32,000 nt of DNA from Candidatus Peribacter riflensis (lineage in GTDB: Bacteria > Patescibacteriota > Gracilibacteria > Peribacterales > Peribacteraceae). This document shows, in pieces, positions 10,855 to 31,890 of this stretch. The stretch covers positions 870,001-902,000 of the forward strand of contig CP013062.1 of NCBI GenBank assembly GCA_001430755.1. Reading direction: 5' to 3'. The position numbers and the translations under genes were made by a program. The notes under the pieces were generated by a model that was not told the DNA's origin, did no database searches, and saw only the letters and a list, made by a program, of their open reading frames with translations. How positions within the stretch are numbered: position 1 is the stretch's first letter; every line of letters starts with the position of its first letter.

Positions 10855-10886
10855 GGGAAGCTATCCTACAAGTGAACAGCTACAAG

Positions 10887-11636: not shown

Positions 11637-11658
11637 GCGCAGAGGATATTGATGTTGT

Positions 11659-11922
11659 ACAAAAAAACAACAAACAACTCACCAAAACAAAAACACAAAC
11701 AGAAAATAACAAACAGTCTACGTTGGAGGTTCCGCGCGCCACCGGGGGTGAAGGGGAAGGCCCTGTCACGCATAGAGCGGGACACGCCGACGAATCGGCT
11801 CCGAAGCCTTGGAGGAGCCGAAAGGAGGCACAGGGCCGGGCGGAGTGGGGATTGGCGCGGGGTGCGCTCTCTTTGCTTCTTTCTCTGGCGGGCAGACAGA
11901 GAAAGAAGGGAGCTCACTTCGC
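11659..11922 (+). repeat. copy A of a two-copy intergenic element (candidate structured ncRNA or miniature repeat)
   Basis: A/C-rich tract at 11659-11716. Blocks identical to copy B: 11744-11765, 11786-11793, 11801-11815 and 11823-11859. Perfect 12-bp hairpin at 11876-11887/11897-11908. Shared 10-mer CTCACTTCGC at 11913-11922, overlapping the nth stop codon. The strand given is the orientation of similarity, not proven transcription. Confidence 0.85.
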
Positions 11923-20106: not shown

Positions 20107-23100
20107 CTACTGCCTGCCGCGCAAAACCCGTACGAAGAGGAGAACGAACGTGAGGAGAATAGAACCCACTATGGCACCAATCGCCCAGATCCACGACACG
20201 CCCCAATCCGGGATCTGTTGCTCCACTGGAGCGGAGGGATATGCCGGTATGACAGGCAGGATCCCGGCAGAGGAAGCAGAGGAAAGAGAAGAAGATTCCT
20301 GCGAGGAGGAAGAAGAGGAGGATACGGGCTCCTCGATACTACAGAGGGCAGAGCAGCCGTCCTCGTCCGTCACATTCCCGTCATCACACTGCTCAGGATC
20401 GTCGATGATCCCGTCCCCGCAGACAGGAGAAGGCGGGGCGTCCGCCGGATGCTCGAGAGTACAGAAGACGGAGCAGCCGTCGCCATACATGATGTTGCCG
20501 TCATCGCACTGCTCGCCTGCCTCGAGAAAACCATTACCACAGAGAACATTGGCTGCAGAACTGGCAGATGACAAAGCAGAATCGGCGGCAGTGGGCATGG
20601 GAGTGCAGAGGCAGTCAGCGGCGCAGAAGGAACCCGACTCACATGGCAGGCCACGCTCGCACTGCTCTCCGGGATCGAGAACGCCATCACCACAGGCAGC
20701 GAGTGGCATCGAAGACGCAGAGAAAGACGACAGCGAGGAGGTGACGGAGGAGGCGGAAAGAGCAGCCAGCAGCGCGGACTCTGACGAGAGAGAAGAAGAT
20801 TGTGCAGTCACCCCGGGCAGCAGGATGCACTGACACAGGTACGTGCAGTACCTGCCGGCAGGGCAGGGGGCACCGACTTCGCACTGCTCACCTGCATCCA
20901 GAATGCTGTTGCCGCAAAGGGACGCCTGGGACGAGACAGAGGAGAACGACGAGGAAGAAACGGAAGAGAGCAGGACACACTGGCACTGCGATGGATGGCA
21001 TGCGTACCCCGAGGGACAACCCGTGACGCCAACTTCGCACTGCTCGCCGGCATCCAGAATGCCATTGCTGCAGAGCGCGATTCCTGCAACAGACGTAGTG
21101 GCCGAGGATTGCGAGGAACCCCGTGAGGAGGAGCGGGGAGTGCAGGAGCAGGATGCCGTGCAGAAACCGCCACCAGGGCAGGGATGGTTGGTATCGCACT
21201 GCTCGCTGCCTTCGAGAAGTCCATTGCCGCAGCGTGGGAGAACCGACACGGAAGAGGATCGGGAAGAAGAGGAAGGGAACATCCCAATGACGAACGACGA
21301 AGCGGCACTGGACACGCCCTGTTCGGTCCGGCAGGCGGAGGAACAACCATCTCCGGAAACGAGATCGCCGTCATCGCATTGCTCCGATCCGGCACGGATA
21401 CCATCGCCGCAGAGGGTGCCACAGACACTGGGCACACCTTCACAGACCCACCCGGGCTCACGCTGACAGGTCTGTCCGCAGCCGTCTCCGGTCAGGCGGT
21501 TGCCATCGTCACACTGCTCACCGGTCTCAATCAGACGATTGGCACAGAAACTCCCCGCCTGGGAACCAAAAGAGCTCTGGGCACCCGAAGAAGAGGAAGC
21601 CAAAGACCGGCAAGTGCCCGCAGCACAAAAACCGGGACAGGTGATTGTTTCTGTCAAAGGCAGCCCAGTGGAAGCGGGACAGAATGACTCTACGAGTCTG
21701 GTCGTACTCTCGCAGTAATCCGTATATCCCTGCACCGTTTCTAAGCCGCTCGAAGCACGGCTCCCCCCCCTGGTGATACCGGACACCGTGTAATTCTTCC
21801 CTCCGTCACTATCGGTGCACGCATTATCGAAAGGAGCGGCAGAGGAATGACTGGATGCGCCTGAAGATACAGAAGACGGCTCTGTCAGACACATACCACC
21901 GAGGCACTTGTACGGACAGATGTGAGTCATGGTGGAAGGAAGCCCACGCGGTTGGGAGCAGAAGACCTCCAGCAGCGTCTTGTCACTCAGACAACGATCA
22001 ATGATGGTTTCATGCCGGTCGAGACCGCTGATCCTCGCCGCACCATCTCCCCTTCCGGCGGTGGCAAAGTCCTTTCCCCCGTCACTGTCGGTACACGCAT
22101 CCCAAGGCTCGCAGGTGGAAGGCATGGGTGTGTTGTTGCAGATCCAATCCGTCTCAACGACGCACAGAGGGGAACACCCATCCCCAGCCGTCTTGTTGCC
22201 ATCGTCACAGATCTCGTCGGTGCCCGCATCGAGCGCGCCATTGCCGCAGCTGGTGAACGCACACGTGCTGGGCGAGCCGGCACAGGTCCACCCGGGCTTC
22301 GCAGTACAGGAAGCAGTGCAGCCGTTCACATTACGCGCCTCACAATGGGTAAATGCACAGTCGACGTCCGTGTAACACCGGCGATCATTCGTGCATTGCA
22401 GACGTGTGCCGCCACCCTCATAAGGCAAATTCCGGCACGCTTCACCCATTTTGCAGGAACGGGTATCACAAAAGATGATGTCGTCGCACCGTTTGCCGAT
22501 GTCACACTGTTCGCCGTTATTGACGACGCCATCGCCGCAGATCTCGCGCTTACAGAGAGAGGTACATCCGTCCCCATCTATCTGATTCCCGTCGTCGCAC
22601 TCCTCCCCATTGGTCGTGCACACCTCTCTGCTGGTTCCCACGGCAAAACCCCAATTGAGCGTGGGAACCGGCCGACAATCCGTGAACAACGGGCCCTGAA
22701 CTCCATCTCCGCAGCGCCAGCACATCCACTCCGCCTCATCCGCAGCAGAGAGGTAGGGCTTTTTGAAGCATTCACTGCCCGGTTCGATCTGGCATGTGTT
22801 CGAGCAGCCGTCCCCATTCGCCCTGTTCCCGTCGTCACACACCTCGTACGTCGAGGGATTTGCGTATCCGTCACCGCAGTATATGCACTGCAGGGGTGTT
22901 TCGACGTAGTTGGAGGCCGGTGTGTAACCGAGCCCGTCATTGATGAGCTCAAAATCCGATCGGAAGCCGCTGCCACCCGGTCCATACTCATGATGCGCAC
23001 ATGGATCCGGCGACGTGGTTTTGAAGTAGATATCGATCAGGCGGGCCTGCCCGCTGGGCAGGAGGGGTATAGAACACGTGATCTGCGTACCCTGCACGGC

Positions 23101-23763
23101 ACACCCGGTAATCGGTTCGACCGCAAAACACTCTTGGAGGCCCGCAATGCAGCCGGTGCCGGATGCGATATGATCGAAGACAAAGGCATTGGCCGCATAC
23201 CCTTCGGGAAAGTGCGGCGTCAGTCTGAAGGAATAGCGATCCGCCGCGGTCATGTCAGCCAGGCCGCGATTCCAGACGATGACAGGAAACTTCATCATCG
23301 CCCCCCAGTAGGGCAAATTGACATTGTCCCGCGCGGGCGGATCGAGGATGTACTGCACATCCCCGAAGTAACCGTTGTACCCGCGCAACATCGACTCAAT
23401 TGTTGCAATGAACGCTCCGACCTGAACAGTGTGTGGAGCGGCCACCGTCACCACGGAAGCTACTGATGAAGAACGTGAACTCGATCTCGAAGAAACACCA
23501 CTCACGCTTGGGCAGGTACAGTGCATGGTGCATGCCTGCTGGCCGGGGCAGGGAGCCACGAAGTAGTCAATAGTCGGATCGCACGTTTCGCCCGGATCCT
23601 CCCTGCGGTTGCCGCATGTACCCGGGAGAATCTGTCCCAACATATCCGAGCTACCTGGCAGCACCAGAATGCCCTGCTGCCATGCCAAAAACGCCGAGGC
23701 CAAAAAAATAAAGAGGAGGAGCCAGAGCTTCGCGGCTGCCGGTGGGAGACGAAGAAGGCGCAT
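20107..23763 (-). CDS. giant secreted/anchored cysteine-rich repeat surface protein (Myxococcus-type CGDG...EQCDDGN...GDGC repeats, Ser-rich linkers, C-terminal TM anchor)
   Basis: Signal-like N-terminus MRLLRLPPAAAKLWLLLFIFLASAFLA. At least 7 canonical repeats, e.g. CGNGFLEAGEQCDDGNIMYGDGCSVFCTLE. Five shorter variant modules, poly-Ser linkers, and the C-terminal WIWAIGAIVGSILLTFVLLFVRVLRGRQ. I prefer the ATG at 23763 (TGtTATAGT plus 10 nt upstream) over the GTG at 23775. Confidence 0.85.
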   Translation of the reverse strand: MRLLRLPPAAAKLWLLLFIFLASAFLAWQQGILVLPGSSDMLGQILPGTCGNRREDPGETCDPTIDYFVAPCPGQQACTMHCTCPSVSGVSSRSSSRSSSVASVVTVAAPHTVQVGAFIATIESMLRGYNGYFGDVQYILDPPARDNVNLPYWGAMMKFPVIVWNRGLADMTAADRYSFRLTPHFPEGYAANAFVFDHIASGTGCIAGLQECFAVEPITGCAVQGTQITCSIPLLPSGQARLIDIYFKTTSPDPCAHHEYGPGGSGFRSDFELINDGLGYTPASNYVETPLQCIYCGDGYANPSTYEVCDDGNRANGDGCSNTCQIEPGSECFKKPYLSAADEAEWMCWRCGDGVQGPLFTDCRPVPTLNWGFAVGTSREVCTTNGEECDDGNQIDGDGCTSLCKREICGDGVVNNGEQCDIGKRCDDIIFCDTRSCKMGEACRNLPYEGGGTRLQCTNDRRCYTDVDCAFTHCEARNVNGCTASCTAKPGWTCAGSPSTCAFTSCGNGALDAGTDEICDDGNKTAGDGCSPLCVVETDWICNNTPMPSTCEPWDACTDSDGGKDFATAGRGDGAARISGLDRHETIIDRCLSDKTLLEVFCSQPRGLPSTMTHICPYKCLGGMCLTEPSSVSSGASSHSSAAPFDNACTDSDGGKNYTVSGITRGGSRASSGLETVQGYTDYCESTTRLVESFCPASTGLPLTETITCPGFCAAGTCRSLASSSSGAQSSFGSQAGSFCANRLIETGEQCDDGNRLTGDGCGQTCQREPGWVCEGVPSVCGTLCGDGIRAGSEQCDDGDLVSGDGCSSACRTEQGVSSAASSFVIGMFPSSSSRSSSVSVLPRCGNGLLEGSEQCDTNHPCPGGGFCTASCSCTPRSSSRGSSQSSATTSVAGIALCSNGILDAGEQCEVGVTGCPSGYACHPSQCQCVLLSSVSSSSFSSVSSQASLCGNSILDAGEQCEVGAPCPAGRYCTYLCQCILLPGVTAQSSSLSSESALLAALSASSVTSSLSSFSASSMPLAACGDGVLDPGEQCERGLPCESGSFCAADCLCTPMPTAADSALSSASSAANVLCGNGFLEAGEQCDDGNIMYGDGCSVFCTLEHPADAPPSPVCGDGIIDDPEQCDDGNVTDEDGCSALCSIEEPVSSSSSSSQESSSLSSASSAGILPVIPAYPSAPVEQQIPDWGVSWIWAIGAIVGSILLTFVLLFVRVLRGRQ

Positions 23764-23773
23764 CCCTCTCGCC

Positions 23774-23782
23774 ACTATAACA
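23774..23782 (-). promoter_or_regulatory. extended -10-like TGtTATAGT upstream of the giant surface-protein gene
   Basis: The reverse complement of 23774-23782 reads TGTTATAGT. It lies 10 nt upstream of the ATG at 23763. Confidence 0.45.
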
Positions 23783-27652: not shown

Positions 27653-27721
27653 GAATTAAGAATAATGAATAAAGAATCAAGGAAGAAGATGCTCCGTTGC
27701 TTAATTCGTAATTCTTAATTC
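27653..27721. repeat. AT-rich 11-bp inverted repeat bracketing the ligase/epimerase intergenic region
   Basis: GAATTAAGAAT (27653-27663) pairs with ATTCTTAATTC (27711-27721). The right arm overlaps the epimerase stop codon (27715-27717). The intervening 47 nt are AT-rich in an otherwise GC-rich window. Confidence 0.7.
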
Positions 27722-30881: not shown

Positions 30882-30883
30882 AA

Positions 30884-31144
30884 TCCAACAAAACAACCTA
30901 CACAAACGGAACAGAAACAAACAGTACACAGCATACAGGTGGGGGCGCGACACGGGGGGTGAAGGGGAAGGCCCTGCCACGCGAAGCGTGGAATGCCGAC
31001 GAGACGAGCCGAAGCCTTGGAGGCAAGGCGAGGAGGAACAGGGCCGGGCGGAGCGGGGATTGGCGCGCACGCGTTTTGGCTCCACCTTTGTCGCTCGGAC
31101 AAAGGTGGAAAGAAATCCAATTCGCCTCACCAGCCTCACTTCGC
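30884..31144 (+). repeat. copy B of the two-copy intergenic element (candidate structured ncRNA or miniature repeat)
   Basis: A/C-rich tract at 30884-30935. Blocks identical to copy A: 30955-30976, 30995-31002, 31009-31023 and 31031-31067. Perfect 12-bp hairpin at 31081-31092/31098-31109. Shared CTCACTTCGC at 31135-31144. Confidence 0.85.
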
Positions 31145-31158
31145 TATAGTGACCCCCC
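31145..31158 (+). promoter_or_regulatory. -10-like TATAGT 8 nt upstream of the dsbA-like ATG (putative leaderless promoter)
   Basis: TATAGT at 31145-31150, then GACCCCCC, then ATG at 31159. There is no Shine-Dalgarno motif. Confidence 0.45.
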
Positions 31159-31890
31159 ATGCGCAAAGCCACCCTCTTCACCTTGAGCTGCAGCCTGCTC
31201 CTCGCAGCCTGCACGCTCCCCACCCCCTCTCGGCAGCAACAGAACTCTCCCGCATCTTCGTCGAGCGCAAGCTCCGAAGAAGTACAACTCCAGGGGGAGG
31301 AAATCGGCGAGGGCATGCCCCTGACTGAGGAACTGACCGAGACCGGCGCTCTGGCCGAACGATTCCTCTCGACTGGCGTACTCGAGATCGGCAACCCACA
31401 GGCGCCTCTGACCCTCCTCATGTTCACCGAACACCACTGCAGCTACTGCCGGCAGGTTTTGCTCGAGCTCTTTCCGCGACTCAAGACAGACGCACTCGAC
31501 TTGGGCAGTGTGAAAGTACAGATCGCCATGCTCCCCCTGCAGAAATACCAGAAGAGCACCGAGGCCGCCCTGGGTTTCATCTGCAGCGCCGCACAGGGCA
31601 AAGGGCTCGCCATGCATGACACCCTCTTCCGCAACCCCAATAAATCCAAGGAGGCGATTCTCTCGTACGCGGTGGATCTGAAGCTCGACACCGCCTTGCT
31701 GCGCGACTGCATGAAGAGCGCACGGACGACCGCCATGCTCGAGGACCAGCAGGTCTGGGCGCAGAGCCTGGGAATAGATGTGGTGCCCACGTTCTTCCTC
31801 AACGGCGAAAAGTTCATCGGGCTCCCGTATTATCCAGATCTCAGGGGCAGAATCGAAGAGGCACTGCAAGCGCTCAAGGAGCAGCAGTGA
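31159..31890 (+). CDS. DsbA/thioredoxin-fold lipoprotein (thiol:disulfide oxidoreductase-like)
   Basis: Lipoprotein signal MRKATLFTLSCSLLLAAC (lipobox LAAC). Active-site-like HHCSYCRQ (CxxC). DsbA-like tail GIDVVPTFFLNGEKFIG. Confidence 0.8.
   Translation: MRKATLFTLSCSLLLAACTLPTPSRQQQNSPASSSSASSEEVQLQGEEIGEGMPLTEELTETGALAERFLSTGVLEIGNPQAPLTLLMFTEHHCSYCRQVLLELFPRLKTDALDLGSVKVQIAMLPLQKYQKSTEAALGFICSAAQGKGLAMHDTLFRNPNKSKEAILSYAVDLKLDTALLRDCMKSARTTAMLEDQQVWAQSLGIDVVPTFFLNGEKFIGLPYYPDLRGRIEEALQALKEQQ

Follow-up and report, generated by a model that had tools for sequence, protein, structure and literature searches.

The 32,000-nt stretch of the Candidatus Peribacter riflensis genome analyzed here (contig CP013062.1, positions 870,001 to 902,000; hereafter the window) contains two copies of a structured interspersed repeat of ~185 nt that occurs in Candidatus Peribacter genomes and is, as far as the literature searched and Rfam 15 show, undescribed. 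The explanation that we favor, at about even confidence, is a Peribacteria-specific, non-autonomous interspersed repeat similar to repetitive extragenic palindromic (REP) sequences and to REPINs, the hairpins formed by two inverted REPs, which would be active as a folded single strand of DNA. It draws on the size and boundaries of the family, on a fold backed by covariation, on an orientation that follows replication and is independent of genes, and on near-duplicate copies and presence/absence differences among related genomes.

A covariance model built from 67 copies of the family, R1, recognizes exactly two full copies in the window, both on the plus strand: copy A at 11721-11910 (150.2 bits, E 5.4e-34, model positions 1-179) and copy B at 30932-31113 (149.2 bits, E 9.2e-34). 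The original prediction, made from the letters of the window, had aligned two stretches in the same orientation, and these are indeed repeats, with 86% identity between 11801-11859 and 31009-31067 and 85% between 11734-11780 and 30945-30991, a similarity far beyond chance; the identical blocks that it listed are all present in the pairwise alignment. What had been described as a two-copy element is instead a family with ~100 confirmed copies in at least 22 genomes of Peribacteria. The exact 19-mer GGTGAAGGGGAAGGCCCTG, taken from the first of the identical blocks, matches at least 120 loci, a lower bound that stems from a scan of contigs from one genome per species, and about 100 of the collected loci hold full-length copies according to the covariance model. 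Nearly all of the matching loci come from metagenome-assembled genomes of Candidatus Peribacteria or Peregrinibacteria, and the few chance matches lie in coding DNA of unrelated taxa; genome UBA11694 alone has at least 21 element loci. The 19-mer served as the search key, so that its invariance is partly a selection effect: the copies that the model finds in the collected loci include several that are 1-2 bases off the 19-mer, and among the second copies found in the same loci roughly half carry it exactly and the rest differ by 1-2 bases. When the window was extended by 10 kb on each side in CP013064.1 (1,248,112 bp; coordinate = window + 870,086), three copies were added, giving five copies in 52 kb, all on the plus strand, or ~1 copy per 10 kb around the window. 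These local copies fill the three long intergenic gaps of L130, and all copies of the family are intergenic.

Neither the genome paper on five complete Ca. Peribacter riflensis genomes nor the other literature searched describes the element. The initial impression that it belongs to no known RNA class held when the Rfam check was run: the window has no match at gathering thresholds, and copies A and B together with a consensus-like copy, searched on both strands at E up to 10, gave only noise (microRNA-type models, E 0.05-10). Phage and plasmid collections contain no BLAST match to the element, and an origin from such replicons was dismissed after the two viral-contig matches to the 19-mer failed the covariance model.

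Conservation across the family begins at a GGRGG motif ~23 nt 5′ of GGTGAAGG and stops at the end of a terminal hairpin; both ends are sharp, and the flanks are unrelated between copies. The core measures ~185 nt, or ~250 nt with the A/C-rich leader of the Ca. P. riflensis clade, and the extent of ~260 nt proposed originally has to be replaced by the stretch from the GGRGG motif to the hairpin. The A/C-rich tracts that had been counted as part of the element are real, at 11656-11720 before copy A (86% A+C) and 30882-30936 before copy B (84% A+C), both on the plus strand, but they are a lineage-specific 5′ extension confined to the Ca. P. riflensis clade and are absent from the family consensus. 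Apart from 11656-11716, no tract of the window reaches 90% A/C or more over 40 nt, and there is no G/T tract on the plus strand. The leader is present in four of the five local copies and frequent in the Ca. P. riflensis clade, while the upstream A+C fraction is ~0.5 in other clades; where it occurs, its polarity is always that of the element, and the leaders of related copies share the motif ACAAAACAGNAAAC. The leader of copy A is 94% identical to that of the orthologous copy in L051. Beyond the ends, the flanks carry a single signal, a T at position -1 (39 of 74 copies, 53%), with no longer target motif, and neither terminal inverted repeats nor target-site duplications were found in recently duplicated pairs or in the 5′ and 3′ flank profiles. 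The 10-mer CTCACTTCGC stands just 3′ of both window copies (11913-11922 and 31134-31143), where the one at copy A overlaps the endonuclease III stop codon, and is not kept in the wider family. A long-range helix between GGGTGAA and a downstream TTCGCC, which both window copies could form, was also discarded because the family, in which similarity does not extend past the hairpin, does not keep it.

The copies share a common fold that consists of a closing helix (P1), a G-rich single strand, a three-way junction, a rod and a terminal hairpin. In the 67-copy alignment, 95.6% of the cells pair, whereas shuffles reach 84.5% and slid controls 37-48%. Compensatory changes occur in 26 of the 40 modelled pairs. 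In copy A, where all parts lie on the plus strand, a GGAGG leader (11725-11729) precedes the 5′ strand of P1, CCGCGCGCCA (11732-11741), which pairs with 11853-11862. Across the family, P1 (columns 14-22/173-182) has compensatory changes in seven of nine pairs, and its 5′ strand exists in the subtypes GGCGCGCC and CCGCCGCC, with which the partner strand switches too, yielding four compensatory pairs. The near-invariant unpaired G-rich block CGGGGGTGAAGGGGAA follows at 11743-11758; its family form, ACGGGGGGUGAAGGGGAA, is almost invariant. A G-quadruplex was considered and rejected, as UAAG stands in place of the fourth G-tract in several copies. The 5′ strand of P2, GGCCCTG (11759-11765), pairs with CAGGGCC at 11831-11837, and in the family this helix (GGCCCUG/CAGGGCC) is invariant and 99.6% paired, an invariance that is partly due to sequence selection since the 5′ strand lay within the search pattern.

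The hypervariable P3 arm (11766-11785 in copy A) occurs in 79 distinct variants among ~100 copies, of which 29 versions lack a hairpin of 4 bp or more, and many are perfect palindromes with self-complementary centres. Long perfect palindromes recur as P3 arms in several genomes, for example CCCAGCACCCTTGC..GCAAGGGTGCTGGG and GTGTAGGGTCACGGCATGCCGTGACCCTACAC (L008:7249, L034:6558, L058:7169, L070:7788, L093:5058, and in L101, L103 and L021). The P4 rod of copy A (11786-11829) combines GCC/GGC and two tandem G·A motifs (GACGAA / AAGGA) with a 7-bp stem that covaries in the family (11796-11802 with 11814-11820) and with the 11-nt loop GAAGCCTTGGA (11803-11813). The family versions of the tandem G·A motifs (GACGAG/CGAGGA) have positions that are invariant in 61-67 of the 67 copies, and the 11-nt loop follows the consensus GAAKCCYUGKA. 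The 3′ unpaired block GGGCGGAGTGGGGAT and then the 3′ strand of P1 occupy 11838-11862, the family form of the block, located between P4/P2 and the P1 3′ strand, being GGGYGGAG.

A pyrimidine-rich linker and the terminal hairpin complete copy A at 11863-11908. A perfect 12-bp hairpin had been reported after each copy, and both are present, with arms at 11876-11887 and 11897-11908 in copy A and, as TCCACCTTTGTC/GACAAAGGTGGA (31081-31109), at 31081-31092 and 31098-31109 in copy B. In the family this hairpin measures 11-16 bp, is preceded by a U/C-rich linker, has pyrimidines in its 5′ arm and purines in its 3′ arm, with A/G coming next, and shows compensatory changes in nine of 12 pairs. The remaining parts of copy B, likewise on the plus strand, are the G-rich block with the 5′ strand of P2, GGGGGGTGAAGGGGAAGGCCCTG (30954-30976; P2 3′ strand at 31039-31045), the P3 hairpin CCACGCGAAGCGTGG (30977-30991), which contains the DNA mini-hairpin GCGAAGC, and the P4 rod (30995-31037), which runs from GCC GACGAG through the loop GAAGCCTTGGA at 31011-31021 to CGAGGAGGA. 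Weak minus-strand matches of the model beside each copy (e.g., 31077-31179) were set aside, as they are due to the palindromic terminal hairpin.

Small palindromes nest only in the loops and junctions of the element. A second repeat family, a mini-hairpin of ~24 nt of the form CCCTGAGC-N3-12-(GT)CGAAGGG with 38 matches in the collected loci (e.g., L041:3523, L066:1700 and 5074, L040:5597, L047:745, L022:354), is found free in intergenic DNA or inside the large element, in the gap between P1 and the G-run or in the terminal hairpin. The 3′ module also occurs alone without the core, as a GC stem, a T-run and the hairpin CCACCTTTGTC..GACAAAGGTGG, at L036:753-856 and L066:1746-1852.

The orientation of the element follows the replication of the chromosome. 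Of 113 copies, 92 have 8-kb flanks (elements masked) in which the GC skew is negative on the element's G-rich strand (p 9e-12), and the AT skew on this strand is positive in 78 of 113 flanks. When the flanks were split by gene orientation, the coding-strand term of the skew was -0.006 and the orientation-independent, replication-type term -0.036, the latter being negative at 53 of 66 loci (p 7e-7). The same polarity is visible along contigs of up to hundreds of kb, with nine of ten copies on the plus strand in DMXL01 and six of six in DMXL06, and all copies on the minus strand in DMXL04 (3/3), JAQUKV04 (3/3) and MFYJ12 (2/2), and on each of these long contigs the sign of the element polarity is opposite to that of the contig skew. 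The window obeys this rule as well: the cumulative skew of the plus strand falls, and all five local copies are on the plus strand. The orientation of the element thus tracks replication strand asymmetry, independently of genes. According to the usual skew rule, the leading strand has more G than C and more T than A. The excess of C over G and of A over T on the G-rich strand therefore suggests that this strand has the sequence of the lagging strand and so lies on the leading-strand template. The origin of Ca. P. riflensis was placed by skew in the genome paper (PMC4736985), and a large ribosomal-protein cluster on the plus strand at 5-8 kb fits an origin near coordinate 0. The dnaA gene lies at 616,331-617,752, half a genome from the start of the record, and other marker genes are mixed; given this distance of dnaA, the assignment of the origin relies on GC skew together with the orientation of the ribosomal cluster.

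With respect to neighboring genes, in contrast, the orientation of the element is random. Its strand relative to the flanking gene pair is same/same in 27 cases, opposite/opposite in 22, same/opposite in 22 and opposite/same in 20, and 51% of the flanking coding bases, taken from a gene call based on codon usage, are co-oriented with it; copy A is antisense to both adjoining genes. There is no conserved upstream promoter in the family alignment (information content <0.15 bit at -70 to -24), a consensus scan found no sigma-70-like site, and A's rather than T's stand 3′ of the terminal hairpin, so that the features of an independent small RNA (sRNA) gene are lacking. An intrinsic terminator was likewise rejected, as on both strands a U-run leads into the terminal hairpin and an A-run comes behind it, and the element is not enriched downstream of co-oriented genes. 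Nor does the element encode a protein: its conservation is at the nucleotide level, as had been argued from the reading frames of the two window copies, with a hypervariable P3 arm whose indels are not multiples of three.

The composition of the helices and loops bears on whether RNA or single-stranded DNA (ssDNA) is the active form. Natural RNAs carry many more G·U pairs than the element, in which the helix positions are ~97% Watson-Crick and, scored equally, 33 G·T and 21 A·C pairs do not differ significantly. An earlier count from an RNAalifold table, ~44 G·U versus 8 A·C, had been taken as an argument for RNA and was withdrawn as an artefact of the alignment and the choice of structure. 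Among the P3 loops we found 17 C(GNA)G triloops (e.g., GCGAAGC, GCGAAAGC) compared with a single GNRA and no UNCG loop; GCGNAGC and GCGNNAGC are known as extraordinarily stable DNA mini-hairpins (PMC13037366, PMC3201870). With DNA energy parameters both strands fold, into mirror-image structures. Only the G-rich strand carries the tandem G·A pairs, which are invariant, and the GNA triloops, and no TNC loops, which would be GNA on the other strand, were seen on it; therefore, the G-rich strand is probably the one whose fold matters, be it as DNA or as RNA. Because the hairpins of REPINs show compensatory changes too (PMC3116915), covariation alone is not proof of RNA, and the loops, the pairing and the missing promoter argue against an RNA gene, with ssDNA as the more likely active form.

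Several comparisons reveal how copies arise, differ and persist. Copies at different loci of the same genome can be 95-97.6% identical, including the P3 arm, and 40 of 92 copies have their nearest neighbour within their own genome. Related genomes differ in the presence of individual copies: one site is filled in UBA11694 (L033) and empty in STB_179 (L076), with flanks that are 88% identical, and L027 has a copy at a site that is empty in both the window (10855-10886) and L051. Together, near-identical copies at separate loci and these presence/absence differences indicate that copies spread within genomes. The L033/L076 pair was tried as a clean empty site that would define the ends and was abandoned, as ~280 nt are replaced by 18 nt. 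The orthologue of copy A in L051 combines the ends of copy A with a P4 of the copy B type, a mosaic that suggests recombination between copies. Orthologous copies are also retained across diverged flanks, with an overall element identity of 80-86%; for the orthologue of copy B in L007 the flanks are 74-78% identical. At another pair of orthologous sites, L021:6295-6515 has a full copy, and L122:2455-2635 an inverted, truncated copy that abuts a nested palindrome and keeps the leader, the P1 5′ strand, the G-block and the P2 5′ strand.

We searched for a gene that might mobilize the element. The collected loci contain no Y1-like open reading frame (ORF) and no parent insertion sequence (IS). 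The sole convincing transposase-like annotation in the table of Ca. P. riflensis is gene RIFOXYC2_FULL_PER-ii_58_32_293 (309,635-310,510), a 292-aa K07488 'transposase' (PMC4736985 supplement). An all-against-all BLAST of 664 flanking proteins in search of a recurrent neighbor family returned only orthologous housekeeping clusters, and a supposed transposase between the head-to-head copies L066/L065 was dropped when the N-terminus of the gene, read by eye, looked like that of a YchF/Obg-type GTPase.

The explanation favored here, a REP/REPIN-like repeat active as a folded DNA strand, would accommodate these observations as follows. The fold, with its closing helix, three-way junction and subterminal hairpin, would display the invariant purine-rich single-stranded segments, and a trans-acting protein, by analogy an HUH/Y1-type or other structure-specific nuclease or recombinase, would recognize the folded strand. 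Copies would then spread in the genome and be homogenized by recombination, in the manner of REP/REPIN or IS200/IS605-derived elements, and an insertion, excision or purging coupled to replication would lead to a uniform orientation relative to the fork; the same polarity would result if copies whose folding strand is exposed on the lagging-strand template were preferentially lost. The mobilization by a protein is suggested by the known systems: IS200/IS605 and REP systems act on ssDNA at the fork via subterminal hairpins and have neither terminal inverted repeats nor target-site duplications (PMC6006769), and REPIN hairpins combine compensatory changes with long persistence (PMC3116915).

A number of observations weigh against this explanation. 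No transposase adjoins any copy, the annotation table of Ca. P. riflensis has no K07491 or IS200 entry, and 0.9 Mb of collected loci gave no IS200-like match in a tblastn search, a weak negative, as the TnpA query was approximate. By GC and AT skew, the G-rich strand, to which the tandem G·A pairs and the GNA triloops are restricted, appears to lie on the leading-strand template, opposite to the rule for IS200/IS605. No REP, REPIN or IS200-family end is as elaborate as a three-way junction with invariant single strands. The filled and empty sites of L033 and L076 do not represent a clean insertion, as ~280 nt stand opposite 18 unrelated nt. Moreover, orthologous copies persist with unchanged unpaired blocks where the coding flanks are only 74-84% identical, which fits host-level selection as well as concerted evolution.

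The repeat shares its behavior with REP/REPIN and IS200-derived repeats, but we file it in neither family. Like the REP, BIME and REPIN repeats associated with RAYT (TnpA_REP) transposases, which are tyrosine HUH enzymes, it is high-copy, extragenic and non-autonomous, replicates within genomes, falls into within-genome subfamilies and has hairpins with compensatory changes; further common traits are long vertical persistence, a share of ~1% of the genome and a supposed action as ssDNA (PMC3116915, PMC6006769). REPs, however, are palindromes of 20-40 nt with a 5′ GT[AG]G that form inverted doublets in REPINs, whereas the element is a 185-nt three-way junction with purine blocks, a separate terminal hairpin and a GGRGG leader and has no GTAG. 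REPs are mobilized by RAYT, the product of a cognate single-copy gene that the repeats usually flank, and here no RAYT was found in the collected loci or the annotation table; conversely, a replication polarity as strong as that of the element is not documented for REPINs in the literature cited (PMC3116915, PMC6006769). With the ends of IS200/IS605 elements and of their ORF-less derivatives (PATEs) it shares the subterminal hairpin, the replication-correlated orientation, the ssDNA logic and the lack of terminal inverted repeats and target-site duplications (PMC6006769). It differs from them in having a hairpin at one end only, the other being closed by P1, in a far more complex internal fold, and in the absence of a parent IS, tnpA or tnpB from the collected loci. 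IS200/IS605 elements insert 3′ of a conserved tetra- or pentanucleotide, compared with the T at -1 noted above, and their active strand is on the lagging-strand template, compared with the apparent leading-strand template for the motif strand of the element as judged by skew. The attC sites of integrons (e.g., Vibrio VCRs) resemble it in the precedence of structure over sequence, a variable central arm and the use of one folded DNA strand. In chromosomal integrons the recombinogenic attC strand is reported to lie on the leading-strand template, as the motif strand of the element appears to. The element has none of the R″/L″-L′/R′ boxes (RYYYAAC / GTTRRRY) of attC sites and forms no array by an intI gene; its copies lie scattered between housekeeping genes, in both gene contexts. 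ERIC/IRU, Correia/NEMIS and HEARO sequences are also intergenic, 100-300 nt long, extensively paired and sometimes co-transcribed, but terminal inverted repeats and target-site duplications are features of ERIC and Correia elements, HEARO/omega RNAs occur together with IscB, and none of these repeat types matches the element by covariance model.

Three other explanations were weighed against the REP/REPIN-like one. The original prediction had proposed a structured RNA, and the element is indeed strongly structured and covarying. As a non-coding RNA family, the transcribed G-rich strand would bind a protein or another RNA via its GGAGG/GA motifs and the 11-nt loop, for instance as a sponge or scaffold, and such a family would be new, given the lack of an Rfam match. 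The invariance of the unpaired purine-rich blocks in at least 22 genomes, the restriction of tandem G·A pairs, GNA loops and a G...A-closed loop to one strand, the U-rich tract after the closing helix, which resembles a terminator, and the retention of orthologous copies over long divergence are all in line with this idea. We nevertheless consider it unlikely: besides the lack of a conserved promoter, a terminal hairpin without a proper terminator tail on either side, G·U pairs that make up ~1% of pairs and do not exceed A·C, and loops that are not GNRA or UNCG, about half of the copies are antisense to both neighbors, where read-through would yield the wrong strand, and sense transcription would run head-on to replication in ~81% of copies. 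A number of ~100 copies per 1.25-Mb genome, as extrapolated, is also unlike any known sRNA family. A classical MITE (miniature inverted-repeat transposable element) of a DDE transposase, that is, a cut-down IS moving as double-stranded DNA, would account for a high-copy, short (~180-250 bp), non-coding, intergenic and non-autonomous repeat, and close to the ends the two strands of P1 form inverted repeats. The sequence of P1 is not conserved but covaries, however, and the GGRGG leader and the terminal hairpin lie outside it; conserved terminal inverted repeats and target-site duplications are missing, no parent IS is seen in the collected loci or the annotation table, and strong replication polarity is not expected of double-stranded transposition, which makes this origin very improbable. 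The plain MITE- or REP-type repeat that had been named as the counter-hypothesis to a structured RNA is matched by the many copies, but not by terminal inverted repeats, target-site duplications or a lack of covariation.

The element might also serve its host as a replication-polarized chromosomal DNA signal in cis that is kept by selection rather than by selfish spread, with possible roles in replication restart or priming, as a polar barrier, or in guiding recombination or segregation. A polarity that is uniform at the scale of replichores and independent of genes, the extreme conservation of the primary sequence in the unpaired blocks and the retention of orthologous copies would suit such a signal, as would the maintenance of the element in a streamlined 1.25-Mb genome with almost no annotated mobile genes. 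Mini-hairpins of the GCGAAGC type occur at phage single-strand origins, too. They are unusually stable DNA structures (PMC13037366), which is a further point in favor. Yet the known polar signals KOPS, Chi and Ter are short and unstructured, the copies are irregularly spaced along contigs, truncated, interrupted and inverted copies are tolerated, and the presence/absence differences between relatives together with near-identical paralogues look like turnover rather than fixed sites, so that we deem a host-serving role improbable as well. Finally, it is possible, though doubtful, that the repeat represents a new kind of folded nucleic-acid element that is strand-specific and belongs to the Candidate Phyla Radiation (CPR), either as a substrate of a so far unrecognized system for ssDNA mobilization or recombination or as a domesticated, replication-polarized chromosomal signal or RNA that serves the host in a minimal genome; in the former case, the ssDNA system may use no Y1/RAYT but a module that recognizes the three-way junction.

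CPR genomes are tiny, streamlined and usually described as poor in mobile DNA, and the element runs counter to this description: at a local density of ~1 copy of 185-250 nt per 10 kb, it would rank among the largest non-coding components of these genomes. What sets it apart is the combination of a complex covarying fold, invariant single-stranded motifs and a uniform replication orientation in the absence of a recognisable transposase, which makes it a tractable case for studying how structured repeats, whether selfish, domesticated or both, persist and spread in reduced genomes. On the practical side, the 19-mer is close to diagnostic for Peribacteria and could serve as a marker, and the element is a hazard for genome assembly and for pipelines that search for RNA motifs, in which its covariation may be mistaken for that of an RNA gene.

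The genes of the window are of the housekeeping type, encoding SecDF-PPIase, trehalose enzymes, ThyA, DHFR, a TrmB-like regulator, endonuclease III, an RNase T-like exonuclease, Def, GatB, EF-P, an ECF sigma factor and its anti-sigma factor, GuaA, WecG and a DsbA-like protein, in agreement with the initial statement that genes for a transposase, reverse transcriptase, Cas protein or integrase are missing there. The direct-repeat families D1-D4 originate from an ORF on the minus strand (20107-23775), which encodes a cysteine-rich protein of 1222 aa that contains six DUF4215 repeats; this protein matches the exported C-rich proteins with which the genome paper deals. Between two minus-strand genes, at 27653-27721, there is an AT-rich inverted repeat of 22 nt (GAATTAAGAATAATGAATAAAG / CTTAATTCGTAATTCTTAATTC) that is unrelated to the element.

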